A stretch of 64,000 nt of DNA from Candidatus Latescibacterota bacterium (GCA_965203175.1 OZ241867.1:5376001-5440000), one strand, 5' to 3'. Positions 2,541 to 20,728 are shown, numbered from the stretch's first letter. Notes: generated by a model from the sequence alone, not told the origin. Numbers and translations: made by a program.

Positions 2541-2556
2541 GTGCCGGTTCCTCCGG

Positions 2557-4815: not shown

Positions 4816-5059
4816 GGAAAAAGTCCTTTGCCAATTCTTCAGGGGACAGATTGATGGCCGATACTTGGTAGGACTTCAAGGCATCTAAAAACACGACGCG
4901 ATCCATATCTGCAAACCGAGCAGCTTGCCCAGAAGACAGACGTCCGAGTTCAAATAGTTTGATGGCTATCAGTAGCCGTCCTTTTTCGGCGAAGCGTTCA
5001 GGCGTTTCGCTAAGGGTTTGCAGTATGTCATCTGGACATTCAAATGTAATTTTAGACAT
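4799..5059 (-). CDS. UPF0175 family HTH protein (putative antitoxin)
   Basis: 'AIKLFELGRLSSGQAARFADMDRVVFLDALKSYQV'. GGAGG RBS. Typical pairing with DUF3368. Confidence 0.85.
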   Translation of the reverse strand: MSKITFECPDDILQTLSETPERFAEKGRLLIAIKLFELGRLSSGQAARFADMDRVVFLDALKSYQVSAINLSPEELAKDFFRAKDL

Positions 5060-5100
5060 TGTGTACTCCTCCTGAAAAATCGCTTTCGGCTTCTACGATC

Positions 5101-5147
5101 TCAAATTTACGCCACATTTCTTTTTTAACTTCATCTATGTCCTGCGA
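5101..5147. repeat. Imperfect direct repeat, copy 2; remnant 3' end of a paralogous antitoxin-like gene
   Basis: Minus-strand translation SQDIDEVKKEMWRKFE versus SQDIAEVRKEMWHKFD in copy 1. Confidence 0.78.
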
Positions 5148-5174
5148 TAATAGTGATAACGTACACAGCTCTGC

Positions 5175-6881
5175 CTATTGGGGCAATAACGTCTTGATGT
5201 TGTCTTCATATACGACGATCCTATCTCCGTAGTCCCGCCGCAGCCCCATCAAAAACGCATCCGCCAAGCGGCTCTCCTCGGCGCGTTTCAATAGCGCCCG
5301 CGCCCGCTTCGCCGCCGTATCAAAAGGCTCGGGAGCACTGCCAAAATTCGACTTCAGCACCTTGAACATCGAGTAGTACTCGCCGCCCCGAGGCATGGTC
5401 TCCGGCCCGACCACTTGGGCGGCCTGTGCCGTCACCGCTAGCGGGCCGTACAACCGGCCGACCTCGGCGCTGCGCACGACGTCGATCAATTCTGGATAAA
5501 AGGACTGTTCAAAGGCGTGGATGTGAAATGTGCCCTGCGCGCCCTTGCCTGCCGTCCGCAAGGTGTATTCGTCGGCGAGTGCACCCATATCCTCCTCCGC
5601 CTCGATTCTCGCCTTAATCTCCACGGCCTCCTCCCAAGTTTGCACCATGATCTCCTGCAGCGTGACCTCCTCCGGTGCGGTGAATAACTCGGGCCGCTCG
5701 TCGTATAATTTCCTAACCGCCTCCGGCTCGATCTCGACTTGGTCCTTGACCGCCGTCTGCCTAAGTGCCAACAGCAACAATGCGTCTTTGCGGCGCTCAT
5801 ACCAGCGCACGATCTGCTCTTCGCGGTCAATCCCCCTTTCATAGGCCACGTGCAGGAATAAGGTACGGGGCAGCAACACGTCCTCGGCAAACCACCGCAC
5901 CGACTCGACAATGTCACCTGAAAAACCCATCTTCAACTCTGCGGCGTAATCCCAGAAATCGCCCACCGTGACACTACCTTCGCGAAATTGAAAGAGTACC
6001 GCTGCGCGCTCTGCCTCGGTGTACTCTCTGCGCCCTGCCGCGACCCATTGCTGTAGCTGCTGCAAGGTCTCGTCATCGGCCTGCAAGTCGATGTCGGCCC
6101 GCAGTTGCGCCAAGAATGTCTCTATCAGTTCGGTCGTCTTTTCCTCTCGCAGCTTGGCTTCCAACTCGTTGCTCGCGGTGGCAAAACTCACGGGCCGGGC
6201 GTGCATGACTTGATAGATCCCGAACTGGCCATTGGGCAGGCGGATCGGCTCGGAGTACTCGCCGACCGCAAGCGCGTTTATGTATTCTTGCAAATAGACC
6301 GGGATGCGTTTGGGAGGCAGATAGCCGTCCAGTTCCCCACCTTGTGGTGCCGTCGATTTGTGCTGCGATCGGCTGTGCGCCAGTTCGGCGAAATCCCGGC
6401 CGGCGGCAAGGCTTTGCCCGATCTCCTCGGCTTCTGCCTGGGTGTCGACGATGATCAGGCGCAGCTTGACCTCGCGCTCCTTGTCCGCGGCTTCGTAAGC
6501 CGCCCGCAACTCCTGCTCATCGACGTGGACCTTGGCGAGAAATTCGCGCTCGAACAACAAGCTCAACACCCGTTCGGCTTTTTCCTTCCGTAGCTTCTGC
6601 GCCACCTCCGGCACCTCGTCGAGTCCCCTTTTGATCGCTTCTTGGAGGAAAATCTCTTTGTCGATGACTGTCTGTAAGTAATCGCGGTAGCCGTCTAAGC
6701 CTGACTTCTTCGTCTTTAGCTGCGCCGGCAAGCGCTGTTCAAAGTCGATCAGTTGAGAAGCCGTTATCCGGCGGTCTCCCACTTCGGCCAAAACGGGATC
6801 TTCTAGTTCCTCGGCATCTTTTGCACAACCCATAAGTGCTAGGAAAACTCCACTGCAAACCAAGGACAGGTGCGCTTTCAT
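5175..6881 (-). CDS. Parvulin-type peptidyl-prolyl isomerase/chaperone lipoprotein (SurA/PrsA-like, duplicated unit)
   Basis: Likely start ATG 6881 (MKAHLSLVCSGVFLALMGC, lipobox). Two rotamase-like segments: 'VKLRLIIV...DFAELAHSRS...QGGELDGY' and 'VTLQEIMV...DMGALADEYT'. Confidence 0.82.
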   Translation of the reverse strand: MKAHLSLVCSGVFLALMGCAKDAEELEDPVLAEVGDRRITASQLIDFEQRLPAQLKTKKSGLDGYRDYLQTVIDKEIFLQEAIKRGLDEVPEVAQKLRKEKAERVLSLLFEREFLAKVHVDEQELRAAYEAADKEREVKLRLIIVDTQAEAEEIGQSLAAGRDFAELAHSRSQHKSTAPQGGELDGYLPPKRIPVYLQEYINALAVGEYSEPIRLPNGQFGIYQVMHARPVSFATASNELEAKLREEKTTELIETFLAQLRADIDLQADDETLQQLQQWVAAGRREYTEAERAAVLFQFREGSVTVGDFWDYAAELKMGFSGDIVESVRWFAEDVLLPRTLFLHVAYERGIDREEQIVRWYERRKDALLLLALRQTAVKDQVEIEPEAVRKLYDERPELFTAPEEVTLQEIMVQTWEEAVEIKARIEAEEDMGALADEYTLRTAGKGAQGTFHIHAFEQSFYPELIDVVRSAEVGRLYGPLAVTAQAAQVVGPETMPRGGEYYSMFKVLKSNFGSAPEPFDTAAKRARALLKRAEESRLADAFLMGLRRDYGDRIVVYEDNIKTLLPQ

Positions 6882-6947
6882 AGACTTAGTAAACTCACAA
6901 TTTTTTGGGTGGAATGGATTAAACTGCGGTGCGGCGACCAACAGGCG

Positions 6948-9782
6948 CTAGCGGACGCTGCCATATACCGTCACGAAGGAGAGGGCGCCCGTCTCCCGAG
7001 CGCTCGGCTGTTCAAAGCGCTCTAGGTAACGTCTGCTCACCCTTATCCCCATCAGGGTTTGCAGGGAATAGCCCAGATACGGCTTGTCGATGGAAAATTG
7101 CACGGCGAGCGAAGTTTCGTTGAAATCCCCGGTCGTATCCCCGACGCGTAAACCAGCAGTGGCCGTCTCGTCCTGGATAAAATCGCGGAAGATCAGGTGC
7201 TCAATGCCCAACTGCAGCGACACGTGGTTCAAAAAGGAACGCCGCAGCAAGAGCGAGGAGATCCCGCTCCAGTCTTGGCGCTCGGCGGTCGAGGCGCTGG
7301 TTAGGCGGCCGATATTGTAGGGGGTGTCGTCCATGAAGAGTTCGTGCTTGAAGCGCGGTTGCACTGTCAGCCGGCCCAGCGAAAATTGGTAATCTATGCG
7401 GTTGATCAGCCCCAGCCGCCGCGTGTTGCGGGCGATCTCGCGGCCAGCCCGGTCGCGGGCATTGGCGTCGCGCTGCCGAATGAATTCGTGGATGAACTTG
7501 CCTTCGCTATGGATACCCTTGTAGGTCTTGCCAGTGAAGCCAGCCCACAGCCGATTGACTATGGCGTTGCGCATCGCCAGCGGATCCATAACCGGCTGCA
7601 TCGCCCCTGGCGAGTCCAGCGGCCGACCCAGCTCGGGCCGCGCTGTCACCCACTGGACCACGTCGTCGGCGATGTCATCCTGTACCAGCTTAAACATGTT
7701 GTAAAAGGCAACATTTCCCATCGTCGAGAAATTGCGCTCATAGGCCAACAGAGCATAGCGAGTCAGATTCTTTGCGTCGGTGGACAAGCGCTGCACTTGC
7801 TCTTGCCCCACCATCCACTTCAGCTCCGGCGTCAGCCACGCCCCTAAGTAGGCGTTGTACCCGCGCCGGTCGCGCTTATAGGGATAATCCGGCTCGTCGT
7901 CGTTTTCAAAGCGCTCGCCCCAACCATTGTTGTTCAAGTCGATAGCGAAGACGAATTCCGGCCGATCGACGTAGTGACGCAGGAACTGCTCTTCGTAGTC
8001 GGGCATGAAATTGGGGCGCACTGGAGTGTTGTTCTGGTTGAAATCGGAAATAAAGTCGTTGTTTTCGTCGAGACCGGGAAACACCGCTCCGTCAGCTAGC
8101 CCCTCCTTGTCGCGCCGCTGGTCGAGGCGGATGTCGTTGTCGTCGTTGTCATCTACCAAGTCGTAGAGAAACTCCGACCGCGCCTCTTCGTCGTCGCTGT
8201 AATTGATTCGCCCACCCTGATCGACGAGGAACGACGTGGTGTTGTACTCGGCATCCATGCTGAACGCCTCGCCGAACAGGAAGAAGGGGTAGAATTCTCT
8301 GGCGACGTTGACCATCCAACCCGTCGCCGACTCATCCCCCAACACGCCGGACGCGCTGTGGTGCGTCTGCCGAGCGATGTTGGGGTACTGCCGGAACTGG
8401 TGGTTGACATTGTACTCGCCGTACATCCGAAAGCCCGCCCAATCGCTGACCTCGAAGCTAAAGCCGAAGACCTGGGTCGCTGTCGGCAGGCCGTAGTCGA
8501 AAACAACCCACCGCTGATTGGAATTGTCTTGGACATTGCCGTCTGCCCGCACCACGTTTAAAAACTTGGATTGGGCACCCAACGGTTCATTGTCGGTCTG
8601 GACGTCCGAGGTGATATCGATCCGGTAGTCGTTGTTGAGTAGGAAGCGGAACTTCACCGCGGTGATATTGTTGACCAAGTCGGCATCGTCGATGATGTCT
8701 TCCAGCGCCATCACCGCCGGGTCTTCAGAAGAGAAATTGTACCGATAGGTAATCTCGCCCTCGCTGCCAACTCCTTCGGCAACGGGAAAACCATTGCGCG
8801 TGGTGCCACCCTCTATCTGCGGCAGAAAACCAAGCTGGCTGCCGACCAGCACGGTGTCGCGACCGCCGATTTGAGTATGCACCTCAATATCTTGGTTGAA
8901 AACCGTAGGGCCGCCCACGCCGTCCTCGGGTGAGTCGTCTGTTATGCGGACGATGATCCAGTTGATGCGATTTTCTAGTTGGCCGTTAGTCAGCTTGCCC
9001 TTGAAGGGATTGCCGCCGCGGTCGGATTGCGATCGGTCGTTGTGGGCGTTGACAAAGGTCGCGCCCAAGCGCACGGCGTTGAGGACTTTCCACTCGCCCC
9101 TGATGCCCAGCAAGTTGGTAAAGTTCTCGGTGACGATGGGGACGCGCACGCCCGGGGCGATCTGATGCACAGGCAGACTAATCCGCGACATCAGCACCGT
9201 AGCGGCCAAGCGGTCGGCAGCATAGTCAAATTGCACTCCGTTGAACCTAGTTTTGCGGAACGTCATCGGCGTCAGCGTAGTGTTGATCAGGTCGCCGATG
9301 GTCACCCCCAAATAGTGCTGGCCCTTGGTATCGGTGGCGATGAGCAGGTTGCTAAACCACGAGTCGTAGCGCCCGGACGGCTTGAGCAGTCCCGAGCCTC
9401 CCGAGCTGGTCGGCTGCCGCTGCCGCCAGTCGTACACCAGCCAACCCTTGGTCAAATAGCGCCCGTACAGGTCGTAGAAATAGTCGCCTTCCTGCCCGGG
9501 AGAAAAGTAGCGCCGGTAGGGATCCCTAGCGTAATTGGTGTACTCCCACTGCCAGCGGTATTCGGAGACGATTTCCTGCGGCATGTACCAGCGCTTCAAC
9601 GCGGGAACAAACGCCGCCTGCTGCATGAGTGGGCCGGAGGCATAATAGGAAACCCGGTCCTCCTCGTTGGTCCCCAAACGGTTGCCGTAGTCGGGTTGGG
9701 CACTCGCCGGCACCAGCCCGGCCAGCAAGCAAACCGCCGCCCACCGCATGCACGTCCCCATTGTTAGATCGCGTCGCATCAT
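6948..9782 (-). CDS. Large exported hypothetical protein, predicted outer-membrane beta-barrel with Asp/Asn-rich Ca-binding loops (paralog 2)
   Basis: 944 aa with signal peptide (..CLLAGLVPASA-Q), many alternating amphipathic strands, and motifs DDNDDND, DENNDFISDFNQN, DLNNNGWGERFENDDEPDYPY. Colinear similarity to 9779-12571. The CDS is secure; the fold is inferred. Confidence 0.65.
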   Translation of the reverse strand: MMRRDLTMGTCMRWAAVCLLAGLVPASAQPDYGNRLGTNEEDRVSYYASGPLMQQAAFVPALKRWYMPQEIVSEYRWQWEYTNYARDPYRRYFSPGQEGDYFYDLYGRYLTKGWLVYDWRQRQPTSSGGSGLLKPSGRYDSWFSNLLIATDTKGQHYLGVTIGDLINTTLTPMTFRKTRFNGVQFDYAADRLAATVLMSRISLPVHQIAPGVRVPIVTENFTNLLGIRGEWKVLNAVRLGATFVNAHNDRSQSDRGGNPFKGKLTNGQLENRINWIIVRITDDSPEDGVGGPTVFNQDIEVHTQIGGRDTVLVGSQLGFLPQIEGGTTRNGFPVAEGVGSEGEITYRYNFSSEDPAVMALEDIIDDADLVNNITAVKFRFLLNNDYRIDITSDVQTDNEPLGAQSKFLNVVRADGNVQDNSNQRWVVFDYGLPTATQVFGFSFEVSDWAGFRMYGEYNVNHQFRQYPNIARQTHHSASGVLGDESATGWMVNVAREFYPFFLFGEAFSMDAEYNTTSFLVDQGGRINYSDDEEARSEFLYDLVDDNDDNDIRLDQRRDKEGLADGAVFPGLDENNDFISDFNQNNTPVRPNFMPDYEEQFLRHYVDRPEFVFAIDLNNNGWGERFENDDEPDYPYKRDRRGYNAYLGAWLTPELKWMVGQEQVQRLSTDAKNLTRYALLAYERNFSTMGNVAFYNMFKLVQDDIADDVVQWVTARPELGRPLDSPGAMQPVMDPLAMRNAIVNRLWAGFTGKTYKGIHSEGKFIHEFIRQRDANARDRAGREIARNTRRLGLINRIDYQFSLGRLTVQPRFKHELFMDDTPYNIGRLTSASTAERQDWSGISSLLLRRSFLNHVSLQLGIEHLIFRDFIQDETATAGLRVGDTTGDFNETSLAVQFSIDKPYLGYSLQTLMGIRVSRRYLERFEQPSARETGALSFVTVYGSVR

Positions 9783-12571
9783 TCTACGCCAGCGTACACC
9801 GAGATAAAGCTAGTGCCGAAGGAGCGACTCTCGCTCTGTTTCACAAGGCCATCGTCACTCAACACCACGGCCTCGTCCCACCGCTTGGTATAGCTAACGC
9901 CAAACTGCGTGGTGAGCTTGTAGCCGAGATAGTGTCCGAGGGTCGTCCACTGCACGGCCAAGACCAAGTTGCGGAAATCACCCGTGTCTTGAGTCGGACC
10001 ATCGTCCAGCAAGGCGTCTTCGTCTAAGACCAGCTCGCGGAAAACCGAATACTCCACTCCGCTTTCGAGAAAGGAGTTGTTCAACACAGGCAGCCGCGCC
10101 TGTAAAATGCCGATCCCCATCCACTCCTTGCGGTCGGGATCGGCCTGTAAAAAGGCCGTCTGATTGAGGTATTCGCTTTTCACCTTGGGTTGCAGCACGA
10201 ACTGGCCGATCTTGCGGGTGTAATCCGCCTTATTGATCAAACCCAGAAACTGCGAGCTTTCATTGAGAATGGGCGCATCGCCGCTTTTGAAAGCCTGACC
10301 GCGCTGACTGAATAGGCTGTATTTGAATTTGTTGATCACATTCAGCTTTTTGAGCGGTTCGTAATCGAATTGCACGTAGCTGTCATTGACCCAGGTGTCT
10401 CTGGCCGGCAGGATGTCCTCAACAAGGGCCAGCGAGACTGTTTGCAGGTATAGCGTCGGCTCGCGGCGCACGTCGGGGATATTGTCCGCGACCTTTTTCA
10501 GCGAATTGAAAAACCGCAAGCGGCCCCATTGCGGGTGGTCGCGGTCGTACGCGAAAACGCCGTAGGTCGCGTGGCTGCGGCGATTGGAGGATATCTCGTC
10601 CTCGCGCAGTCTCCCCACTGTCAATCGCGCCTCCGGCGTCAGGTGTTGGCCAACGTAGACATTGTAGCCCCGGTGATTCCTGCGGTAGGGGTAGTCGGGC
10701 AAGTCGTCGTTTTCAAACCGATCGATCCAGTTGTTGTTGTTGAGGTCAATGCCAAAGAGAAATTCTGGCCGATCGACGTTGTAGCGGAAAAACGGCTCCT
10801 CGTAGTCCGGGATGCGATTGCTCAGCGAGATGTTGTCGTTTTGGTTGAAATCCGAGACGAAGTCGTTGTTTTCGTCCCAACCGGGGAAGACGATCGGGTC
10901 GGGGCCACCTTGACCCCTGCGGCTCCAATCAGGCGTGCGATCTTGGTCGTCGTTGTCATCGACAAACTCATACATTGAGGTGCGTTCGTCGTCGTAGTAC
11001 ACGTTGCCGCCTGAATCGACGATAAACGCCGTCGTCGAGTAATCGGGATCCATGCTGAAGGCTTCGCCAAACAAGAAAAACGGATAGGCCTGCTTGGAAA
11101 CGTTGACCATCCAAGCCGCGGCGTCGCGGGCGTGGGTGCTCAGGTTGCGGTCCGCGTTGGCGAGCGTGAGATTGGGGTACTGGGTGTAGTCGCGATTAAT
11201 GTCGTACTCGGCATAGGCGTCAAAGCCCATCAACTGCAACACTTCCATGGTGAATCCGAACACCATGTTGGCCGATGGCAGCCCGTAGTCAAAGACGACG
11301 CGCTGCTGATTTGAATTGTCTGTCACATTGCCTGCGGCGCTGCGGACATCGAACAGCACGGCACCCGCCTGCGCCAAGTCCAAACCCGTAAGCGGCGGGC
11401 TGGGCAAGCTGCCGCGCCCGATCTGGCGATCCGACCACACCTGGATCTTGTAGTCGTTGGCCACCACGAGATCGAACTGGATATCGACGATCTCCGTCGG
11501 CCGCGGGCCAATGTACGCTAGGTCTGTGAAGTCGTAGTTGATGACGATCTGTTCTTCTCCGTCGGCAGCCAGAAACCCCTCCCGGGGAAAGCCGCCGGTA
11601 ATCACCGGCCATTTGGTCGGATCGACTACCACCTCCCGCAAGCGGAATTTCGTGCGCTTCTTGGTGTCAAAATCCTCGGCGGTAATGATGATGTCGTGGG
11701 CAAACAACGCGGCACCGCCTTGGCCGTCTTCTGGGGAATCGTCGCTCAGCACCACAGCGAGGACCCGGATCGGGTCGCTGCCTTGTCCGGCCCCCAAGGA
11801 ACCGATGAACGGGTTGCGTTCAAACGCCTCGGCTAGCGTCTGCGAGTGGTGGGCATTGACCATAGTCGCGCCGACCTTAACAAAATCCCCCACCTGCACC
11901 GTCGCCCGCCCCCCCATCATATTGGTCGCGTTGGTCGAGACGTTGGGCTGGCGCTCGGGGGTGGTGCCGAGGATCGCCTCGCTGGCGCGGGAGAACAACA
12001 GCGTCGCCTCGTATTTGTTCGCGGCAAAATCCATCTGGATGCCGTTGAAACGCGGCTTCGAAAAGGTTAGCGGGGTCAGGGCGGTGCGGATGCGCTCGCC
12101 GATGGTGATCGCCAAGTAATACTGATCGCGCGAGTCAGAGGAGACCGTGACGGCGTTGAACCACGAATTGAACTTGGGGTCTTTGTAGATCGACGAACCG
12201 AATTGGCCCGGTTGTGTCTGGTTCCAGTCGAAAACCAGCCAGCCCCAAGTCTGATAATTCCCATACAGGTCGTAAAACGGCCCGCCTTGGCGGTTGGTGT
12301 TGACGTAGCGCTGGTATAAGTCTCTGGCGTAATTCGAGTACTCCCACTGGCGAAAGCCGTAATCGACGTATAACTCCTGCGGCACGTACCATTTCTTGAG
12401 CGCCGGATCGAGCGCATCGAAGAGGACGCCCGGGCCGCGCGGCTCAAAGGTGAGTTGGGCTCCGCGCTGGGTCCCGAAACGACGGTCCAACGACTGGCCG
12501 GTCACCTCAGTCGCCAGCAATACCAGTGCAAAGAGGACCAGCCACGCAGGCATCCCCCTAGTTCTGCCCAT
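9779..12571 (-). CDS. Large exported hypothetical protein, predicted outer-membrane beta-barrel with Ca-binding loops (paralog 1)
   Basis: 930 aa with signal peptide and GGAGG RBS. Shares 'PALKxWYxPQE', 'FYDLYG.Y.T.GWLV.DW', 'TIG..I.T.LTP.TF.K.RFNG.Q.D', 'DDSPEDG.GG' and 'PFFLFGEAFSMD' with the downstream paralog. Confidence 0.65.
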   Translation of the reverse strand: MGRTRGMPAWLVLFALVLLATEVTGQSLDRRFGTQRGAQLTFEPRGPGVLFDALDPALKKWYVPQELYVDYGFRQWEYSNYARDLYQRYVNTNRQGGPFYDLYGNYQTWGWLVFDWNQTQPGQFGSSIYKDPKFNSWFNAVTVSSDSRDQYYLAITIGERIRTALTPLTFSKPRFNGIQMDFAANKYEATLLFSRASEAILGTTPERQPNVSTNATNMMGGRATVQVGDFVKVGATMVNAHHSQTLAEAFERNPFIGSLGAGQGSDPIRVLAVVLSDDSPEDGQGGAALFAHDIIITAEDFDTKKRTKFRLREVVVDPTKWPVITGGFPREGFLAADGEEQIVINYDFTDLAYIGPRPTEIVDIQFDLVVANDYKIQVWSDRQIGRGSLPSPPLTGLDLAQAGAVLFDVRSAAGNVTDNSNQQRVVFDYGLPSANMVFGFTMEVLQLMGFDAYAEYDINRDYTQYPNLTLANADRNLSTHARDAAAWMVNVSKQAYPFFLFGEAFSMDPDYSTTAFIVDSGGNVYYDDERTSMYEFVDDNDDQDRTPDWSRRGQGGPDPIVFPGWDENNDFVSDFNQNDNISLSNRIPDYEEPFFRYNVDRPEFLFGIDLNNNNWIDRFENDDLPDYPYRRNHRGYNVYVGQHLTPEARLTVGRLREDEISSNRRSHATYGVFAYDRDHPQWGRLRFFNSLKKVADNIPDVRREPTLYLQTVSLALVEDILPARDTWVNDSYVQFDYEPLKKLNVINKFKYSLFSQRGQAFKSGDAPILNESSQFLGLINKADYTRKIGQFVLQPKVKSEYLNQTAFLQADPDRKEWMGIGILQARLPVLNNSFLESGVEYSVFRELVLDEDALLDDGPTQDTGDFRNLVLAVQWTTLGHYLGYKLTTQFGVSYTKRWDEAVVLSDDGLVKQSESRSFGTSFISVYAGVE

Positions 12572-12603
12572 TAAATCCCTCCGTTAGAAAACAAATCTTC
12601 TTA

Positions 12604-12629
12604 GTCATGCTGAGCGCAGCGAAGCATCT
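12604..12629. repeat. Solitary REP-like intergenic motif GTCATGCTGAGCGCAGCGAAGCATCT
   Basis: Matches, from memory, a widespread short-repeat type 'GTCAT(C/G)CTGAGCG(A/C)AGCGAAG(G/C)ATCT'. Internal ATGCT...AGCAT inverted arms. Lies in a 72-bp intergenic gap; only one copy seen. Confidence 0.55.
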
Positions 12630-12643
12630 CATACCCACATGCG

Positions 12644-14842
12644 TTAATAAACCATCTCGACGATACCCACCACCGCATCCTCTTTGGCATCGGTGGCCAA
12701 ATGGACACGGAAGAGGTAAATACCCGGAGGCATCTGTTGTCCGGCAGCATTCGTGCCGTCCCACTGCGCGGAGAAACTCCCACCTCCTTGCTCGCCTGCA
12801 AAGAGCGTGCGGACGAGGTGTCCGGCTAGATCGAACACGCGCACAGTAAGCGGCGCGGCATCGACCAACCGCACCAAATCGCAGTGTATCCGCGTTTCGT
12901 CATTGATCCCATCTCCGTTGGGACTGAAGATACGCGGTTGGGCCGCGACGTTGATCATGAGGCGGCCTCCTGCCAGCGGCACTCTTACCGCTAAGTCGTT
13001 CGGGTCGGCGGCCCCGATAGGTATTAGATCGTCGTCCGCCTCCCCCAGATCGGCCGCATTGCCGCCGATGACCCGCTGGCCAAGGTCGTCGGTAGCACTG
13101 TTCCAAGCGGTGCCGGTAAAGGTCGTGCCAAACCTCAGCACGCGGCACTTGAAGCGAATTTTGACCAGCGCCGCCCGGCCCTTGGCCAAATCGCTTTCCG
13201 TGATTGCGGGAAAGCGCACCCGCAGATGCCGCTCGGCCACCGATTCCACGGCAAAAAGACCGCTGTCGTCTTGCACGGGTAGATTAGTCAGGTCCACGCC
13301 CGTGAAATCCGCTGTTTGCACTTGGCCGTCTGCGTGTACCACTTCGATAGTCTCAACCTCTTCAGAGCGCACGGGCGTGGCGATCTCAAAAACATCGAAA
13401 CCTATATCGACGCCCTGGCGCATCTTGGTCGGCAGGACGGCATACGTAAACGACACCGGAACGCCCAGTTCGACTTGGCGCGGGACGACCTCGCTGATGA
13501 TCCGCTCCGTCAGCGGCGGGTTGGACACTGTAAAGGCGAGCGCACCCAACACCCGGGCGGATTCCAAGTTTTGGCTGTTGAATTCAGCCTTCAACTGGAA
13601 ATAACGACGCGGGCCGGGCGAGAGGATGGGTACGCCCTGTGCGTCGTCGCCGATGTTTGCGGCGTTTACAGTACCCGCAGTTAGCTTATAGGGCGGCGAC
13701 CAGCGGCTCCAAGCGACTAAGTCGTCGCGCACGTCGCCCTTATCCGCCTTTTTCAAATCGTCGTACTCGTCCTGCGTCAACGCCACCCGGCTGCGCTCGT
13801 CAATGGGCAGGGCGTTGAAGAAGTCGAGGGCTTCTTCAACATCGTCAACCGCGTCTAAGTCAATCGCATCGCCTGTCGCCGTATTCGCAACCGCTCCTTC
13901 CCGCCACGGCACCTCTTCACCGCTGCCTGGATGCAGGCGAGTGAATTCCAACGGCGTATCGTCCCAGCCGCTGCGCGAACTGATCAGCAAGCGCGACAGG
14001 CGTTCTGTACCAAAGTGCTCCTCCTCCCAGCGGATGCGTCCCCACAGCGCCAATTCCTCGCCAAAATCGAAGATGTTGGAAAGGTAGTCGGCGCGGGGCA
14101 CAAACCCGGAGCCAAAGACGCGGAATTCCGCAACCTCAAACCCCACGGTGGTCTGCGATTTCAGGCGGATATAGCGGACGTATTGCGGCGGGATGGTCAG
14201 TTCGACGACCGGCTGTTCGTTTTCCGTCTCCAGTTCGACGGTGGTCAGCACCGGCTGATTGGCCACCTGCGTTTCTTCGCTGCCGTCGTTGAGCAGCAGT
14301 TCAAAGCCGCGCAGGAAATCGTTCTGGAACGGGAAATCGGGGGCGGGAAAATCGGGGTGCGCGTTGCGGGGGAAAAACTGGATTCGCTCGACGCCGAACC
14401 GCGCGCCGAGATCGAAGTCCATGATTACCCCAAGTGAGTTGACCTGGCTCGCCCCGCGGGCTGTCTTGCGCTCAAAGGCGGTCGTGGGATCGTCGTCGAT
14501 CATAAAAATTAGCTGGTCTTTTATGACCTGCGACAATATGGTCGGCGCGCCGAGGCGACCGCCGCGGTCGAGGAGGTCCAAAGCGATATTTACGGTCTCA
14601 TCCGCCTGTTGCGGCGACAACCAGCCCACCCGGCCGTCGGCATCAAACTCGAGCACATTGCCCGGGGTATTGCTAACCTCGACCTCGGTCGGACCGGTTT
14701 GTATTAAGGCCGCGATAGTCCCACCGCCGCTCGCCCACTCCAACCCATCCTCGCCACCCATGACAATAGTGCGGCGCTCCGCCCCTAGATTTTGAACCGC
14801 CAACAATACCAGCACCAGCGCCTGCGCGCGCGGATACAACAC
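12644..14842 (-). CDS. Secreted protein: discoidin/F5-8C-like domain, beta-sandwich region and C-terminal CHU_C/FlgD-Ig (T9SS-CTD-like) module (paralog 3)
   Basis: Signal peptide. 'DFDLGARFGVERIQFFPR', 'WSRWSPPY', and tail 'IFSPNGDGINDE...VRVFDLAGHLVRTL...WDGTNAAGQQMPPGIYLFRV...VEMVY'. Confidence 0.78.
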   Translation of the reverse strand: MLYPRAQALVLVLLAVQNLGAERRTIVMGGEDGLEWASGGGTIAALIQTGPTEVEVSNTPGNVLEFDADGRVGWLSPQQADETVNIALDLLDRGGRLGAPTILSQVIKDQLIFMIDDDPTTAFERKTARGASQVNSLGVIMDFDLGARFGVERIQFFPRNAHPDFPAPDFPFQNDFLRGFELLLNDGSEETQVANQPVLTTVELETENEQPVVELTIPPQYVRYIRLKSQTTVGFEVAEFRVFGSGFVPRADYLSNIFDFGEELALWGRIRWEEEHFGTERLSRLLISSRSGWDDTPLEFTRLHPGSGEEVPWREGAVANTATGDAIDLDAVDDVEEALDFFNALPIDERSRVALTQDEYDDLKKADKGDVRDDLVAWSRWSPPYKLTAGTVNAANIGDDAQGVPILSPGPRRYFQLKAEFNSQNLESARVLGALAFTVSNPPLTERIISEVVPRQVELGVPVSFTYAVLPTKMRQGVDIGFDVFEIATPVRSEEVETIEVVHADGQVQTADFTGVDLTNLPVQDDSGLFAVESVAERHLRVRFPAITESDLAKGRAALVKIRFKCRVLRFGTTFTGTAWNSATDDLGQRVIGGNAADLGEADDDLIPIGAADPNDLAVRVPLAGGRLMINVAAQPRIFSPNGDGINDETRIHCDLVRLVDAAPLTVRVFDLAGHLVRTLFAGEQGGGSFSAQWDGTNAAGQQMPPGIYLFRVHLATDAKEDAVVGIVEMVY

Positions 14843-14867
14843 AGCCGACTATCTCCTCATAGGTTGG

Positions 14868-17441
14868 TCAATACGCCACGTGCAGCAGGCGCTGCACTCC
14901 CGTTTGCCGCACTCCGCGATGCGAATCCGCGTCAATGTCGATGCGCAAGATGTAAATCCCAGGCGGCACCAGCCGTCCCTGCTGGTCATCGGCCACCCAG
15001 TCGAGCACGTATTTCCCCGCCACTAAGGACTTCTGAGCATCAAGTCGGCGCACCAACCGCCCGCCTAGATCGTAGATTCGCACTTTGACCGGGCGCACGC
15101 CGCTCAACCGACGTACAGTAAAATCAATGGTTAGCGCGTCGTTGACCCCGTCGCCGTTGGGAGTCACTACTTCCGGCTGGATGCCTAGGTCGCCGAGCAC
15201 GTTGTTGTCCTGCACCGAAGCTAGGATCTGCAGCCCCTGACTCTGGGCCAATTCGGTCACGTCCGCCGGATCGACCCGTTGCCACGAGTTGGCCAACGAC
15301 GAATTGCCCATCGCCGCTTGGAGCACTGCTCCGGGGGAAAACAGAGCCGTCGTAAACCGCACCTCGATCAGATCGACCTGTCCGCCCTGCTTTACCAGCC
15401 GGTCGAGGCGCAACCAGAGTGAGTCGGAGCGCGTCTCCATCACCTGCACATTGGCCAGCTCTTCGGCTTGGCCGCTTTCCCATTGTGCCGTGCTGCCCAA
15501 GCGCAATGCGCCGAATTCGAGCGACATGTCTGGCGGGGTGCGCACTAGGATCTCGTCGAAGCCCAAATCCTGCGACGTGAAGATCGGCTTGACAAATAGC
15601 GAAACCTCCTGCGGCGCGCCCAAGCGCGCAAAGACCCCCGCGTCCAGTTCGCCTTGCAGTTGTTTCGCTACCGGCGGGTTGAAGTTCAAGCGAATGGAGT
15701 GCAGACTGGCTGCATCCAGGGGATCTGGGGTCGTCAACCGGGCGCGCAATAGCAGGTATTGGCGCGGGCTAGGCGAAGCAATCGGATCGCCGGACCGCGC
15801 GTAGGGCGCACTCCAGTTGCTCCAGTCGGACCCAGCCACCTGTAGGGTGTCGATCCGGCCCTTTTTAAAAAAGCCCAACTTCGCGTATTTGCCCTCCGAG
15901 ACTTCCGTGCCACCACTGTCGTAGTACCGGTATGCTTCGGCGACCTCATTACCGGTGCGGGTCTGGATTTGCACGGACGTGCCTGGAGGCGTGTCCGCCT
16001 CCCATTCAATCGATATCAAATTCTTCGCACTGCCCAGCGGAATCAGACCCGAAACCAGTTCCACCTCCGGGTGGTAGCCTTCGCCGTACAACTGGACTTC
16101 GCGGATCCGCGCTTTGGTTCCCTCGCCGCGCACCGACTTATCGATGAAGGGATAGGAAACGCGCACGAAGCGGGCGGGCATAGGTTGAAACCTGTTGGTT
16201 TCGGTATCCCTGCCTATGCCGCGCACCTGTTCGGGTGCGGTCCATATTAGACCGCCGCCCGCCGCCGGCGTGCCGTCCGAAATCTGAATTTCGTATATGT
16301 TGAAGCTGGCCCCGGAAAGCCGCCCACCGCCTGCGAAGAGATTGTACCACATCTGTACGGTATCCAGCCAGAACGACACTCCCAAGTCGAACTCCAAGAA
16401 TCGCTCCCCGAATGTGACACTCCCAGAGGCAAATGCCGCGAGGTTGAAGGTCAAGTAGGTTCCTTCGCCGTCGAGCAGGTTGGCCGCCGACCCCTCGTGG
16501 GAACTCTCCGCGCTACCCTTGCGATCCGCGATCAACCCTTGGGAGATATTCCGGCCCACTTCATAGACTTCTAACTCGGCTAAGCGCGGCCGCTCGCGGC
16601 GATAATAGCGGACGGTGCCGCGCACTTGGGGATCGATTACCTCGTAGATCTCCGGCTCGATCTCAACTTCCCCTTCTCCCACCCTCTTGTAGTAAACCAC
16701 ATCCCCTCGATTGGCCTCTGTGAGTGTCTCGTACTCCCCTTCCGATACCTCTTGTCCCCTCATACCATTGCTCTCGGTCACCACAACCTGCACAAAGCGC
16801 ACCATATCGCCTTCAAAATCTCGGCCCGGCACCATGTGAACCAACTCCCCGCCGTCCAGATCTACCACGAATAAACGCTGGCTCTTGTTGTCACTGGGAG
16901 TCCGGAAAACCTGTTTAGTGGGGACTATGCCCGCGATCTGGGCACCCTTGTCGGCGTTGTCGGCGGTCAGCACTACAAATTGCAGAAAGGGGTCGCCCTC
17001 CCCTTCGGGTACGAACTTCAGTCCGATCCGAGTGGCGTTGATCAAGCGACCCATATCGACCTCGAACCACCAATCCTGCAACGGGCTATCCGGGTCGGGT
17101 TCCCAGTAGGTTGTCTCGTCCCCATCGAAGAGATTGGGGATATCCTCCTCGTTGGAACCCGCTTTTATAGCATCGAGGATGGTCACGCTCTCGGGTTTTC
17201 CAGCGGAGCGCAGCAGATGTTCGAGAATGTCCGTCACGGCGTTGTGGTCCTTGGGGACAAAGGCCGGGCGAACCTCGCCGCTGGGAGCAATAGCCAGCGT
17301 CCCCGGGACGAACGTCCAATGGCTCCAGTGGCTCTGGGTGTTCACCACCACTTGGTTGGATCCCAGACTGTGATCCTGTCCCCAAACGAAATTGCACAAC
17401 CCGAGGCTCATCCCCAGTAAGACCATGATCCTTCTGCTCAT
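14868..17441 (-). CDS. Secreted protein: two discoidin-like domains and C-terminal CHU_C/FlgD-Ig module (paralog 2)
   Basis: Signal peptide. 'NLFDGDETTYWEP..WWFEVDMGR' and a second 'NLLDG..LEFDLGVSFWLD'. Tail 'VVTPNGDGVNDA...IYDLGGRLVRRL...GRLVPPGIYILRI...LHVAY'. Confidence 0.78.
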   Translation of the reverse strand: MSRRIMVLLGMSLGLCNFVWGQDHSLGSNQVVVNTQSHWSHWTFVPGTLAIAPSGEVRPAFVPKDHNAVTDILEHLLRSAGKPESVTILDAIKAGSNEEDIPNLFDGDETTYWEPDPDSPLQDWWFEVDMGRLINATRIGLKFVPEGEGDPFLQFVVLTADNADKGAQIAGIVPTKQVFRTPSDNKSQRLFVVDLDGGELVHMVPGRDFEGDMVRFVQVVVTESNGMRGQEVSEGEYETLTEANRGDVVYYKRVGEGEVEIEPEIYEVIDPQVRGTVRYYRRERPRLAELEVYEVGRNISQGLIADRKGSAESSHEGSAANLLDGEGTYLTFNLAAFASGSVTFGERFLEFDLGVSFWLDTVQMWYNLFAGGGRLSGASFNIYEIQISDGTPAAGGGLIWTAPEQVRGIGRDTETNRFQPMPARFVRVSYPFIDKSVRGEGTKARIREVQLYGEGYHPEVELVSGLIPLGSAKNLISIEWEADTPPGTSVQIQTRTGNEVAEAYRYYDSGGTEVSEGKYAKLGFFKKGRIDTLQVAGSDWSNWSAPYARSGDPIASPSPRQYLLLRARLTTPDPLDAASLHSIRLNFNPPVAKQLQGELDAGVFARLGAPQEVSLFVKPIFTSQDLGFDEILVRTPPDMSLEFGALRLGSTAQWESGQAEELANVQVMETRSDSLWLRLDRLVKQGGQVDLIEVRFTTALFSPGAVLQAAMGNSSLANSWQRVDPADVTELAQSQGLQILASVQDNNVLGDLGIQPEVVTPNGDGVNDALTIDFTVRRLSGVRPVKVRIYDLGGRLVRRLDAQKSLVAGKYVLDWVADDQQGRLVPPGIYILRIDIDADSHRGVRQTGVQRLLHVAY

Positions 17442-17463
17442 CGCACCTATCTCCTGAACACCC

Positions 17464-19494
17464 TCAATAGACGACCGATACGACCCCAGATTTTGTCTCC
17501 CGTCCCTCCTCGGTAGAAGCTTCCACCCGGCAGATGTAGAGCCCCGGGCTTACCTTTTGTCCGCTCCCATCCATCCCGTCCCACCGCTGCACGTGCCGCC
17601 CCGCAGTATCGAGACCATTGTATACCTCCCGCACCCGCCGTCCCGCTAGATCCCGGACCTCCACGATCACCGGCGAGGGTGCTGTCAGCTTGAGCAGGTC
17701 ATAGGAGATGTCCAACCCATCGTTGACGCCGTCCCCATTAGGTGTGAAGATTCCTAAGCTCAGCGACAGCGAGCCTAAAAGCTGACCACCCAGCGACAAC
17801 GACTGGACCGATAGGGTGTTGCCATCGAGGAGCGCCGTAGAGTTACCGGGCTGGATCGGCTGCCGGATATCCTGCGGCATCTCGCTATTGAACACCCGGC
17901 CCGCGAAGATCGCCCCGAAGCGGAATATCTCGCCGTTGAACACCACTTCTATCAACTCCTCGGTCCGATTGAAATCGACCTTCGGCATCGCTACTACTAG
18001 GCGGTCCTCCCCCACTTCCAACTCGGTGAAAGCCACTTCTTCCCCACCGATCCGCACCGCGTCAACGTCCGCCAACCGCCCTCCGTCAACGGATATCTCT
18101 AAGCGGTCAAAACCCGGGGAGTCCAACCCGATTGTGGGCCGGATAGCATAGGTAAACCGAGTCAGTTTGGCGGTCTCCACCTGCCAAGGTTCGATCTCAC
18201 CCACCAGTTCCGCTGCCGCCGGCGGCGACGCGGCGAACTCCACATAGCGCAACTCACTGCCCGCAGCGGCATCCGATTCAAAATCCACTTGGAATTGGAT
18301 GAACTGGCGCGGCCTAGCCGCCGTCAGCGGCACGCCTAGACTGTCGGCGAAGTCGTAGGGGATGGACCACAGATCCCAATTTTCCGCGTCGCGAGTGATC
18401 TTGCCTTGCTCGGATAGTTCCAGCCGCCGGTACGCCCCTCGGGTCAGCGGCCGGCCCCGATCGTTGTAGTTTACCTGTTCGTCGCCCCGGAACGTCTTGC
18501 GCCAGTAGATATTGGGATTGGCGTCGCTCCCGCTCTGGCTGCGGATGGCAACTTTGGCCGCAGCGTCTTTGTGCCCCGACCAGCGGACCCAACCCAGCAC
18601 CATTTCCTCCTCTAGATCGAGGATATTGGACGCGTAAGAGGCCGTGGGCACATAGCCTGGGGCGAAAATTTCGAACTCTGCGATTTCCCAGTCTCGGTTT
18701 TGTGACGACACGAAGAGCGCCAAGCGACGGATGTACTCCCCCGATAGCTCCACATCGACGGTAGGCTTAGTATTTTCCGTGACCTTCCGTTCGGCGTGGA
18801 ACAGCAGATCCTTGCGAAAGAAAAGATCTGCATGCGCCCTGTTGACAAGGCCCACACAGTTGCCGAGATGTCCCGCTCCGCTCGTCGAACACAGATCTGC
18901 GAAGCCGATTCCTAGTTCGGTGTTGGTCGCCGTATTGGTCCATACTTGGAAAGCCTCGATGTAATTTTCTTGGTTTTCGGTTCGCGTGAAAAATCGAATC
19001 TTATTCACGGCAAAGAGACCACCCAAGTCGAACAGAAAGGTCTTCCCGACCGTCAGATATTCCCCCACATTCGACCCACAGCCAACGCGTATCTCGCGCC
19101 TGCAATCAGCGCCTTGCAAGCCGACGTACGCCGTTTCTCTGTCGAGGTCGGTGATCTGCTGTATATCGTCCGCTTCGACCCAAGCTTGGAAGCCCTGAGT
19201 TTGCAAATAGCCGCCCCGCTCCCATACCGTCGGAGCAATGTTCTCCTCTGCGGTAAAGAACAACGGTGAAATCGCGTCGGCTCCGATGATCAGGGACTCG
19301 CCGGACCCGAGTCGAGCCGCCTCGATATCGGCCCAGCTAAACTGGCGCAAGTCGGCTTCACCGCGTTCGACCTCCGGCGGCGGCGGTAGATTCTCACCAC
19401 CCAGCCGATAGATCGTCAATCCCGCGACCGGGACGCCCATCGCTAAGGTCATAAACAGCGCGACTAAGAAGCGACACAAAGGCATTTTGGCCAT
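17464..19494 (-). CDS. Secreted protein: discoidin-like domain and C-terminal CHU_C/FlgD-Ig module (paralog 1)
   Basis: Start moved to ATG 19494 (GGAGGT RBS, signal peptide MAKMPLCRFLVALFMTLAMGVPVAG). Tail 'IFTPNGDGVNDG...VRDLAGRRVREV...WDGMDGSGQKVSPGLYICRV...VSVVY'. Confidence 0.78.
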   Translation of the reverse strand: MAKMPLCRFLVALFMTLAMGVPVAGLTIYRLGGENLPPPPEVERGEADLRQFSWADIEAARLGSGESLIIGADAISPLFFTAEENIAPTVWERGGYLQTQGFQAWVEADDIQQITDLDRETAYVGLQGADCRREIRVGCGSNVGEYLTVGKTFLFDLGGLFAVNKIRFFTRTENQENYIEAFQVWTNTATNTELGIGFADLCSTSGAGHLGNCVGLVNRAHADLFFRKDLLFHAERKVTENTKPTVDVELSGEYIRRLALFVSSQNRDWEIAEFEIFAPGYVPTASYASNILDLEEEMVLGWVRWSGHKDAAAKVAIRSQSGSDANPNIYWRKTFRGDEQVNYNDRGRPLTRGAYRRLELSEQGKITRDAENWDLWSIPYDFADSLGVPLTAARPRQFIQFQVDFESDAAAGSELRYVEFAASPPAAAELVGEIEPWQVETAKLTRFTYAIRPTIGLDSPGFDRLEISVDGGRLADVDAVRIGGEEVAFTELEVGEDRLVVAMPKVDFNRTEELIEVVFNGEIFRFGAIFAGRVFNSEMPQDIRQPIQPGNSTALLDGNTLSVQSLSLGGQLLGSLSLSLGIFTPNGDGVNDGLDISYDLLKLTAPSPVIVEVRDLAGRRVREVYNGLDTAGRHVQRWDGMDGSGQKVSPGLYICRVEASTEEGRETKSGVVSVVY

Positions 19495-19541
19495 GGCTAC
19501 ACCTCCCCAAGGGATTTCGGAGAGTCTAAAAGGGCGGCACT

Positions 19542-19584
19542 TAAATCCAAAGGGGAGATGTGGCCACATCTCCCCTTGGATTTA
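19542..19584. terminator. 43-bp near-perfect palindrome; intra-operon stem-loop (terminator, attenuator or mRNA stabiliser)
   Basis: TAAATCCAAAGGGGAGATGTGG|CCACATCTCCCCTTGGATTTA. The arms are complementary except for one bulged A. It lies 28 bp after the stop of 19613-20563, with no long U-tract on the coding strand. Confidence 0.7.
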
Positions 19585-19612
19585 TGCTGTTTCCCAATGA
19601 CTTGGGATCGGG

Positions 19613-20563
19613 CTACTGCTGAATATAAGCGGCCTTGATGCGACCCCAGCTTTCTTCCTCGACCGCCGTCCCCGTCACCATTTGGCTGAAGTCCACGCGT
19701 GGGTCAGTCGGCGCGAGAAGGAAGTCCGAGCAGTTACCGCAATCGAACCACATCTGGATGTTGGGGTTGATACCCCAGCCGCCAGTGCTGCCGGAATTGT
19801 CTTCGGCATCATTGTCCATATCGTGGACCACCCAACCGAGGCCGATAGTATTGCCTTCGACGAAGGTGTGCTCCGGCTCGCTTTCTGTGGGGCCTACCCA
19901 GTGAAAATCATCCCAAGCGGCCGACATGATCTCGATGCGGGCAGTAACTTCGCCGGCGTTCGACTCCCCGTCTAGCTGGAAGCCGTAATCGCCCCACGGC
20001 GGGACGTCATGCCAAGTCGACTTGCTTTGGAACCACCACTTCCAGCCAAAAGGCTCCAGCGGCGGAAAACGGCAGTGGGCGTTTTGTGCGTAACGGCCCT
20101 GGTTGCGCTGGTGCTCCTCTTCGCTTTCGAAATCGCCGGCCGCGTACCAATGCTGGTCGCCGCCGTGGTCGGAGTCAATCATAATCTCCCAGCTATCGTC
20201 GCCGCCGGCGACCGCGCCGACGCCATTGCGATCCCAGTAGTTGTCGAAGCGCTCCATCATGAAATAGAGGCGATTAGTGCCTTGGCTCCAACCGGCAACG
20301 ACCCTGAAGGACAGATTGCTCTCGTCATTTTCGTGTCCCAACCCAAGATAGTATTCGAAGTGGGACTCAAAGGGCACGTAATAATCCTCAGGGACGATAT
20401 CCCATTCGGACAAGTCGCCATCCAGCGTGGGTTCCATACCAGCAGGGAACTGGAACAGGGTACCGGATTCAATGCCAACGATGTCGACATGAGCCGATAC
20501 CGCGCTGGCCTGTAGCATGATGCCTAAGGCCAAAATACTCGCGATGCTCAAAATCTTCTTCAT
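19613..20563 (-). CDS. Secreted CBM9/DOMON-like protein with short C-terminal 'TAVEEESWGRIK' motif
   Basis: ATG 20563 with GAGGTG RBS and signal peptide MKKILSIASILALGIMLQASAVSA. 'PTLDGDLSEWD', 'GWSQGTNRLYF', 'GNTIGLGWVVHDMD'. Homologous to 1446-2540. Confidence 0.72.
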   Translation of the reverse strand: MKKILSIASILALGIMLQASAVSAHVDIVGIESGTLFQFPAGMEPTLDGDLSEWDIVPEDYYVPFESHFEYYLGLGHENDESNLSFRVVAGWSQGTNRLYFMMERFDNYWDRNGVGAVAGGDDSWEIMIDSDHGGDQHWYAAGDFESEEEHQRNQGRYAQNAHCRFPPLEPFGWKWWFQSKSTWHDVPPWGDYGFQLDGESNAGEVTARIEIMSAAWDDFHWVGPTESEPEHTFVEGNTIGLGWVVHDMDNDAEDNSGSTGGWGINPNIQMWFDCGNCSDFLLAPTDPRVDFSQMVTGTAVEEESWGRIKAAYIQQ

Positions 20564-20692
20564 AACGCAATTCACCTCATGGGTTCGTGGTTTGAATATT
20601 CGTCAAAAAAACGAAAAGTGAGCTTCTAATGCCTAAAACGGCCTCTCTTTACCTCCTTTCAACAGCTCTTAATAGTTGCTAAATATCGGCAC

Positions 20693-20722: not shown

Positions 20723-20728
20723 CTACCT

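Follow-up and report, generated by a model that had tools for sequence, protein, structure and literature searches.

What might a bacterium do with a group of genes that encodes two giant outer-membrane barrels, three lectin-like proteins and a chaperone-like lipoprotein, and that it keeps in some forty paralogous copies? The question is raised by a locus on the minus strand, positions 5175-20575, of a 64,000-nucleotide stretch of the genome of a Candidatus Latescibacterota bacterium (GCA_965203175.1, OZ241867.1:5376001-5440000). We refer to this whole stretch as the window and to the seven co-oriented open reading frames (ORFs) of the locus as genes A to G. An earlier inspection of the same DNA by a model, hereafter the sequence-only reading, had seen in them a self-contained surface machine. 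Our tentative answer, to which we give close to an even chance, takes the locus for one instance of a modular surface complex, in which type-B-like lectins sit on cognate giant barrels and capture glycans in a way reminiscent of polysaccharide utilisation loci (PULs).

The ORF calls, together with alignments, structure models and Pfam matches, give the following genes:

19613-20575, minus strand: gene A, CBM9-like protein of 320 aa, first gene of the unit (ORF call)
17464-19569 as ORF (701 aa), likely 17464-19494, minus strand: gene B, beta-sandwich paralog with tail (FlgD_ig, CHU_C)
14868-17441, minus strand: gene C, tail paralog of 857 aa with an F5/8 type C (discoidin) domain (Pfam)
12644-14842, minus strand: gene D, lectin-like tail paralog of 732 aa (structure model)
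9779-12571, minus strand: gene E, outer-membrane barrel of 930 aa (structure model)
6948-9782, minus strand: gene F, paralog of E with 944 aa (ORF call and alignment)
5175-6941, minus strand: gene G, parvulin-type lipoprotein of 588 aa, SurA/PpiD-like (Rotamase match)

The intergenic gaps from A to G amount to 43 (A-B), 22, 25, 72, -4 (E-F) and 6 nt, the start of F overlapping the stop of E by 4 nt. Since the ORF of B begins inside a palindrome (19550-19577), its start is probably the ATG at 19494, downstream of a GGAGG; the A-B gap then becomes about 118 nt, which matches the spacing of about 120 bp reported in the sequence-only reading. The likely start of G is an ATG at about 6881. The signal peptides at the N-termini, as well as the LMGC lipobox of G, are a by-eye reading of the sequence. 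In a scan against Pfam and NCBIfam, the C-terminus of each of B, C and D matched FlgD_ig and CHU_C, C also matched F5_F8_type_C, and G matched Rotamase; A, E and F had no Pfam match at E-values of at most 0.1 and no NCBIfam match. Aligned from end to end, E and F show 39% identity (595 bits). B, C and D share 25-33% identity pairwise, and their last approximately 100 residues, including a PNGDGxND motif, are conserved best. The layout described earlier, i.e., seven co-oriented genes with short gaps in this order, and the paralogy of B/C/D and of E/F are thus borne out.

The own genome, a single contig of 6.58 Mb (93% complete and 6.5% contaminated according to marker genes), was searched with all seven proteins. 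It contains 62 copies of E/F-type barrels, 167 of B/C/D-type tail-bearing proteins (64 + 71 + 32), 36 of G-type parvulin proteins and 24 of A-type CBM9-like proteins. Clustering yields 40 barrel-containing loci, which occupy 626,885 bp or 9.5% of the genome, and the same seven-gene order is repeated at genome positions 901723 and 3656844. Directly upstream of a barrel gene (at most 400 bp, same strand) lie 42 tail genes, and 14 more barrels follow a barrel, so that 56 of the 62 barrels are accounted for. Proximity to a barrel, taken as at most 10 kb, is seen for 30 of the 32 D-type, 22 of the 24 A-type and 32 of the 36 G-type genes. Since the same holds for 43/64 B-type and 46/71 C-type genes, B-C pairs and arrays exist without barrels as well. 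Such barrel-less arrays comprise up to seven consecutive genes (genome 5505519-5521029), and about ten B-C pairs lie elsewhere; if the barrels are anchors, these arrays would be orphan cargo that uses a barrel encoded at another place. Self-containment, as claimed in the sequence-only reading, is not supported: the genome has 40 paralogous loci of which this is one, and it most likely depends on a single PorU/PorV/SprA system encoded elsewhere.

What kind of protein are E and F? A model of E, built from a 58-sequence alignment (pLDDT 72, pTM 0.72), shows, between residue 151 and the C-terminus, approximately 22 long strands that run antiparallel, with a beta-sandwich insert at residues 244-422. 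Two strongly conserved parts are unmodelled, an aromatic-rich N-terminal region (27-150) and an acidic, Asp/Asn-rich loop (538-632). The leading Foldseek matches in the PDB are all outer-membrane barrels (SlpA, LptD, MtrB, SprA, ushers) at TM-scores of 0.15-0.27, and in a VIA structure search 50 out of 50 rows are outer-membrane, or organelle outer-membrane, barrels (Z 8.7-12.6). Because the leading Foldseek matches and all VIA rows are barrels and none of them is close, we take E to be a large barrel of the outer membrane to which no solved structure is closely related. The earlier assignment of the large proteins to barrels therefore stands; of the proposed comparison with SprA and ushers, both are indeed listed by Foldseek, but only at TM-scores of 0.15-0.23.

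Sequence searches of the PDB with the profile of the E family and with that of a divergent subfamily returned nothing relevant, the best matches being a restriction-enzyme subunit (E-value 0.05) and a parvalbumin (E-value 0.8). Neither E nor F matches PF21620 (SlpA_C), and 5 of 18 divergent relatives reach 16.8-30.2 bits with a cut-off of 35. Three other assignments were rejected. A TonB-dependent receptor or SusC is at odds with the lack of Plug and TonB-receptor domains in Pfam; ushers are at odds with the lack of an Usher domain, and a chaperone-usher set with the lack of Usher and PapD-like chaperone Pfam matches in all seven proteins; and a dockerin-like or EF-hand reading of the loop 538-632 finds only DxNxD spacing there, Dockerin and TSP_3 being unmatched at E-values of at most 0.1. 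When residues 40-930 of E and the tail of D (625-732) were predicted as a complex, the result scored 0.00 with a mark of 0.32 and without controls, and no conclusion is drawn from it.

The three proteins encoded upstream of the barrels carry the tails that would connect the locus to type IX secretion (T9SS). B matches FlgD_ig with 37.2 bits and CHU_C with 26.9 bits (cut-off 27), C matches CHU_C with 35.2 bits and FlgD_ig with 24.7 bits, and D matches CHU_C with 36.8 bits; the cut-off of CHU_C is exceeded by C and D, that of FlgD_ig by B and D. In addition, C contains F5_F8_type_C (PF00754) with 32.9 bits at a cut-off of 28.2. The model of D (pLDDT 89.1, pTM 0.79) reveals a CBM32/discoidin fold at residues 81-248 (4a42_B: Z 15.2, root-mean-square deviation (rmsd) 2.0 A, 123 aligned; other CBM32 modules Z 11-14). 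Residues 494-732 resemble PorU C-terminal domains (6za2_B: Z 12.0, rmsd 2.5 A, 100 aligned), and the rest is made up of Ig/Fn3-like sandwiches, with no enzyme fold among the structural matches. By Pfam in the case of C and by predicted fold in the case of D, both appear to be members of CBM32/F5_F8_type_C and putative sugar-binding proteins.

Where the tail begins, a PNGDGxND-type motif is a hallmark of the C-terminal domain (CTD) of type B. The motif is invariant in the alignment of B, C and D. At approximately 90 residues from the C-terminus, a similar motif occurs in 122 ORFs of the genome, 121 of which are of B/C/D type (40/64 B-type, 56/71 C-type and 25/32 D-type paralogs) and one of which lies inside a barrel locus. 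The search for PorU, on the other hand, gave 231 candidate stretches at first look; of the 51 that received a score, 50 match the PorU C-terminal domain in other ORFs. Because PorU-CTD-like tails are common and PNGDGxND is confined, we regard the B/C/D tail as a distinct type-B-like class rather than a general signal. The CHU_C matches and the motif together uphold what the sequence-only reading had said of these tails.

It had also asked whether the genome encodes core T9SS genes, and several such genes are indicated. PorU is present over its cut-off (632 bits), a PorV-like gene follows immediately downstream (147 bits, below the cut-off of 250), and an ORF of 2133 aa carries SprA_N (82 bits). 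PorP_SprF (PF11751), GldL and GldM were not found genome-wide. These absences are uninformative since no control genome exceeds the cut-off either: for PorP_SprF the control genome was silent too, and so were the controls for GldL and GldM, where GldM_1st matched only once, below cut-off, in Caulobacter. In Bacteroidota, according to passages of PMC9143113 and PMC12618676, the partners to which type-B cargo binds are cognate PorP/SprF-like barrels, and their genes are often its neighbours.

The two remaining genes of the locus are A and G. For A itself, no match to CBM9 (PF06452) was obtained at E-values of at most 0.1 (hmmscan) or 0.01 (genome search). Paralogs of A in barrel loci do reach the CBM9_1 cut-off, e.g., at genome positions 6097730, 3053365 and 2791716, and A has an Atlas lead to CBM9_1-bearing clusters (0.97). 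The earlier label of a CBM9-like protein is thus borne out in part, by paralogs and Atlas lead and not by a direct match of A. The protein has neither T9SS tail nor lipobox. Downstream of the operon, a second CBM9-like protein (1446-2777, minus strand) is 27% identical to A and fused to a PKD domain; the gene is kept at the same place in several orthologous loci. Directly upstream of A, an SBP_bac_5 solute-binding gene (20729-22837, minus strand) is kept in six orthologous loci (L010, L011, L013, L015, L016, L020), with no adjacent permease genes.

G matches Rotamase_2 with 51.6 bits (cut-off 27) and Rotamase with 46.5 bits (cut-off 21.7). We place it in the parvulin family; its activity as a peptidyl-prolyl isomerase (PPIase) is predicted from sequence, and its domains may be chaperone-only. 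The claim of a double parvulin is sustained for the first domain, which is 38% identical to the domain of a PpiD-like protein in the window, and is weak for the second: residues 290-588 show no Pfam match at 1e-6, and the proposed domain reaches 18% identity in the alignment. The PpiD/SurA-like protein just mentioned is a canonical one (56507-58327, minus strand; SurA_N and Rotamase), and at 47959-51117 on the minus strand the window encodes a conventional SusC-like TonB-dependent receptor (CarboxypepD_reg, Plug and barrel). Since the window harbours both of these, the barrels and parvulins of the locus are additional to housekeeping ones.

How far does the module extend beyond this genome? 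Named relatives of E are without exception 'hypothetical proteins' from metagenome-assembled genomes (MAGs) of Latescibacterota or labelled Gemmatimonadota, and they are without a precomputed Pfam domain. A profile search with the barrel family against 1.84 billion representative proteins yielded 966 clusters, counted at 50% identity, at E-values of at most 1e-3, and 345 at E-values of at most 1e-30; the family is real but restricted. Loci were compared by means of the 80 best related ones, one genome per species. All four gene classes are present in 44 of them, the order A-B-C-D-E-F-G is kept in 24 (L010-L033, where L021 and L026 are short and keep it over their extent), and D lies directly upstream of E in nearly all. 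Synteny, whose test the sequence-only reading had proposed, is thus conserved, and none of the outcomes it had named as speaking against itself (scattered homologs, large proteins modelling as soluble enzymes, a known system) occurred.

On the level of the phylum, barrels were detected in 72 of the 121 genomes sampled. They occur in 40/40 genomes of the window's own family and in 13/13 of a distant family, and none were found in families f2 (0/29) and f3 (0/13). PorU exceeds its cut-off in 71 of the 121 genomes; in f2 and f3, among the matches listed, all are partial, below cut-off and located in ORFs of approximately 1900 aa. The distribution of barrels thus follows that of a true T9SS. To the T9SS core itself they do not belong, because one PorU-bearing family is mostly without them (barrel in only 1/5). 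As the genomes are kin, this co-occurrence counts as a few independent contrasts at most. The family is also present in MAGs without a sponge label, e.g., a deep-lake MAG (L071).

Five distant genomes carry barrels in tandems of two or three, with a tail-bearing or C-like gene upstream in 4 of 10 loci. From these genomes we conclude that the stable core comprises one or more barrels and a tail-bearing protein, and that the form with seven genes is a feature of the family to which the present genome belongs. Tandem triplets are seen in the distant-family loci L161, L165, L169 and L170 (genomes G003, G001 and G015), and an ORF of about 1100 aa is located 3' of the barrel tandems in L165, L166 and L169.

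Is the locus transcribed as one unit? Two features bear on this question:

19550-19577, minus strand: perfect 28-nt palindrome in the A-B spacer, with a 12-bp stem and 4-nt loop, or 14-nt arms
20693-20722, minus strand: weak promoter-like hexamers upstream of A

The palindrome lies 36 nt past the stop codon of A, and the stem-loop noticed earlier at this place is therefore real. The sigma-70-like site upstream of A was discarded as promoter evidence: on its own it is no evidence, since the region has five such sites and shuffles predict 6.7.

Eleven studies have DNA runs, labelled as sponge or marine metagenomes, in which the stretch is present; it is also present in six metatranscriptome runs. 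Contigs of four RNA runs from two studies were placed on positions 4800-23000. They cover six of the seven genes, and G sparsely; in run X15, contigs span 7689-20522 nearly unbroken. Spans without RNA contigs (most of G, and 20582-21188 upstream of A) were not used as evidence. In three of the four runs, A forms its own contig of approximately 925 nt, and in X18 it comes in two pieces of 697 and 299 nt. The contigs of A end at 19595-19612, just short of the palindrome. Those of B start at 19530/19531 in both runs of study P8, just past it, and at 19503 in X18. Word depth of A is 167, 114, 17.7 and 23.6 in the four runs, the top of the locus in each of them, and that of B is 34 and 23.9 in the first two; along the locus, depth in X15 falls from 167 (A) over 34 (B) and 20.5 (C) to 6.8-10.9 (D-F). 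This pattern, which we take as a hint only, given that contig depth is a poor measure of expression, that RNA libraries can hold DNA and that a perfect palindrome can itself break k-mer assembly, would agree with a single transcription unit in which the hairpin maintains an excess of the first cistron.

The surroundings of the loci were studied by scanning 313 other ORFs, located inside or at most 5 kb from the 40 loci, against Pfam. Recurrent families are TPR, FG-GAP/UnbV_ASPIC, DUF6785/DUF6784, ABC permeases, sulfatases, PhyH, and enolase-superfamily and other catabolic enzymes. The membrane protein families provide a candidate partner, located outside the operon:

23884-26034, plus strand: DUF6785/DUF6784 polytopic membrane protein (Pfam, 407.6 bits)

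We regard this protein as a candidate for a loosely linked inner-membrane partner. The family is predicted with at least 10 hydrophobic segments and numbers 56 members in this genome. The window encodes three (the other two at 30351-32312 and 32577-34541, both on the minus strand), the nearest of which is separated from A by 3.3 kb on its upstream side. Of the 56 copies, 22 lie at most 5 kb from a barrel locus with 8.7 expected (binomial P 1.6e-5), and 35 at most 10 kb with 11.9 expected (P 3e-11). Looked at from the other side, 27 of the 40 barrel loci have a DUF6785 gene within 10 kb. The copy at 30351-32312 has no PDB sequence match, neither it nor the copy at 23884-26034 has an NCBIfam match, and our literature search found no paper on the family.

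Among the other neighbours, some TPR proteins carry a PMT_2 domain, and in a subset of loci TPR proteins are inserted between the barrel gene and the D-type gene. PMT_2 (glycosyltransferase-39-like) plus TPR membrane proteins recur beside a subset of the barrel loci and are encoded, for instance, at 3-1424 of the window (minus strand) and at L110:9029-11248, L105:11508-13787 and L107:11813-13756; they could serve a periplasmic glycosylation of envelope proteins. UnbV_ASPIC occurs in 24 of the 313 ORFs (8 + 9 + 7), and FG-GAP/UnbV_ASPIC (CRTAC1-like) genes pair with TPR genes, e.g., in L093, L094, L099, L103, L104 and L113. Between G and an enolase-superfamily gene lie two small ORFs (3782-4291 and 4327-4815, minus strand), one of which carries DUF3368 and may belong to a toxin-antitoxin-like pair; GC content falls to 0.51 at positions 4001-6000 of the window. 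Farther away, 37414-46123 (minus strand) encodes sarcosine-oxidase-alpha-like/GCV_T, DAO, glutamine-synthetase-like, glutamate-synthase-domain and GATase proteins, a gene set which we take to resemble the N-methylglutamate route for methylamine use.

Taken as a surface complex for glycan capture, the locus would work as follows. B, C and D, with their CBM32/discoidin and Ig-like domains, would cross the outer membrane via the single T9SS of the genome, using their type-B-like CTD. At the surface they would be held by the adjacent-encoded barrels E and F, in place of small PorP/SprF proteins. G would chaperone the periplasmic assembly of the large barrels or of their cargo, and A would be a soluble CBM9-like protein overproduced from the first, hairpin-bounded cistron. 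Each of the approximately 40 loci would recognise a different glycan, similar to PULs. We infer the docking of tails to barrels, the binding of ligands and the folding of the tail proteins by the PPIase. The least certain step is the passage of captured ligand through the barrel to DUF6785 or to an ABC transporter of the inner membrane. Inward conduction is suggested by the size of the barrels, by the neighbourhood statistics and by the operon design, a hairpin after the first gene being a trait of binding-protein operons.

Several known systems share part of this logic. In type-B cargo/PorP-SprF pairs such as SprB-SprF and PG1035-PorP, a barrel gene is likewise immediately preceded by a gene for cargo with a type-B-like tail (CHU_C/PNGDGxND), this class of tail is limited to cargo, many cognate pairs occur per genome, and PorU, PorV (here a PorV-like gene) and SprA are present. 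The module differs in its barrels (approximately 930 aa and 22 strands, with beta-sandwich insert and acidic loop, and without a PorP_SprF signature), in the often two different barrels and three cargo proteins per locus, in the addition of a dedicated parvulin lipoprotein and a CBM9-like protein, and in its phylum, Latescibacterota. With regard to numbers, 12 type-B substrates are given for F. johnsoniae in the portion of PMC12618676 consulted, compared with 62 barrels in the present genome. SusCD PULs resemble the module in their tens of paralogous loci, each with an outer-membrane barrel and surface carbohydrate-binding-like proteins, and often with transport or catabolic genes in the flanks; D, moreover, has the SusE-like BT2857 as one of its matches by structure (Z 11.5, rmsd 3.6 A, 142 aligned). 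In contrast to them, the module has no Plug/TonB-receptor domain, no SusD-like Pfam match and no core glycoside hydrolase, and its putative binding proteins would be T9SS cargo instead of lipoproteins. SurA/PpiD are related to G by the parvulin domain mentioned above; G differs by its lipoprotein signal, a degenerate second domain, the lack of a SurA_N Pfam match and 36 locus-linked copies.

A number of observations weigh against the proposed surface complex. The curated type-B model TIGR04131 (cut-off 35) scores D with 27.4 and C with 20.0, both below cut-off, and the GldL and GldM components were not detected, the controls being silent as well. Neither E nor F matches PF11751 (PorP_SprF) at E-values of at most 0.1; because of this, and of a size about three times that of PorP/SprF, their role as shuttle or anchor is assigned by analogy only. 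Pairing of cargo and barrel is not obligate, because for 21/64 B-type and 25/71 C-type paralogs even the nearest barrel is over 10 kb away. In the distant families, BLAST searches of five genomes detected neither G nor A beside the barrels, and in one of these genomes (G003) no tail gene near them. The limits of contig depth and the effect that the palindrome may have on assemblies count against the RNA pattern. As to import, E and F lack a Plug/TonB-receptor domain, 31 ORFs of the genome exceed the Plug cut-off, i.e., conventional TonB-dependent receptors are at hand, and the core operon is devoid of a glycoside hydrolase.

If import is left out, the same proteins may serve adhesin display only, an explanation that we consider unlikely and yet of appreciable weight. 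The barrels would be pure anchors, and the discoidin/Ig proteins would be adhesins or surface proteins of eukaryote-like type, with which a sponge symbiont binds host matrix or particles or escapes predation. Such a role would suit the sponge and marine metagenomes of 11 studies that hold the DNA of the stretch, the discoidin, FG-GAP/ASPIC and TPR genes that recur around the loci, and the missing plug or TonB signature of the barrels, and SprB/SprF, an adhesin with its anchor, is a precedent (PMC9143113, in the part consulted). However, a 22-strand barrel with conserved acidic loops exceeds the needs of an anchor, the vicinity of the loci is enriched in DUF6785 transporter-like genes and their flanks contain catabolic ones, and the barrel family extends to MAGs without a sponge label such as that from the deep lake.

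It is improbable that E and F are locus-specific secretion pores, i.e., dedicated usher- or two-partner-like translocons for B, C and D, with G as chaperone and independent of SprA. The ushers PapC and FimD as well as SprA are among the Foldseek matches, but their TM-scores (see above) are low and no Usher or POTRA match exists in Pfam. One chaperone-like gene per locus recalls chaperone-usher systems, and the undetected GldL/GldM motor would fit an independent route; the T9SS-like tails, and the restriction of barrels to families with a true PorU, are instead expected if the general T9SS is needed, and B/C pairs occur without barrels.

That E and F are abundant structural porins or tethers of the envelope, distant kin of SlpA (PF21620, Deinococcus-Thermus) whose neighbours form a surface layer, is very improbable: SlpA chains do take Foldseek ranks 1, 2 and 4 and VIA rank 4 (7zgx_A: Z 11.8, rmsd 9.0 A, 410 aligned), which makes SlpA the best structural neighbour of E, and SlpA_C is the sole Pfam family touched by relatives of E (5/18 divergent members, best 30.2 bits with a cut-off of 35), but these matches are sub-threshold, TM-scores are 0.16-0.24, E and F have neither an SlpA_C match nor an SLH domain and E has no coiled coil, the PDB sequence profile searches yield no SlpA, SlpA is a 30-strand barrel and E has approximately 22 strands, and 62 diverged copies, each beside lectins, are unlike a housekeeping tether in copy number and gene neighbourhood.

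We therefore return to the surface complex of lectins and giant barrels. Its logic, type-B cargo with anchor barrels in a PUL-like organisation, is known; its barrel family is without a described member. The sequence-only reading had recognised no named system of such composition, and we likewise found none: our search of the literature on the phylum, sponge symbionts, the outer membrane and DUF6785, supplements being outside its scope, found no description of the module and no paper joining type IX secretion with Latescibacter. The portions consulted of the two papers on Latescibacteria genomes, PMC12993501 and PMC4454575, do not describe it; gene lists in the supplement of PMC12993501 could name its genes. 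In what was seen of it, the 2015 genome paper among these two assumed non-specific porins.

What would follow for the biology of the Latescibacterota? The module takes up nearly a tenth of the genome in a widespread, uncultured sponge-associated lineage, contigs of sponge and marine metatranscriptomes map to it, and all of its core proteins are annotated as hypothetical. Our findings define a new family of giant outer-membrane barrels, would extend the cargo/shuttle logic of type-B type IX secretion beyond Bacteroidota, and place DUF6785 in a first functional context. The complex is a candidate for how Latescibacterota select glycans from their host or from sea water. In a bolder version, which we hold to be distinctly unlikely, the approximately 40 modules would form a TonB-independent counterpart of SusCD that arose within the Latescibacterota, each admitting its own glycan, with ligands passing from T9SS-anchored CBM32 lectins through a plug-less giant barrel, whose kin, if it has any, would be SlpA, and an abundant soluble CBM9-like protein to a DUF6785 transporter of the inner membrane. 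If true, such a TonB-independent import gate would be a third general design for the selective uptake of large nutrients across the outer membrane.

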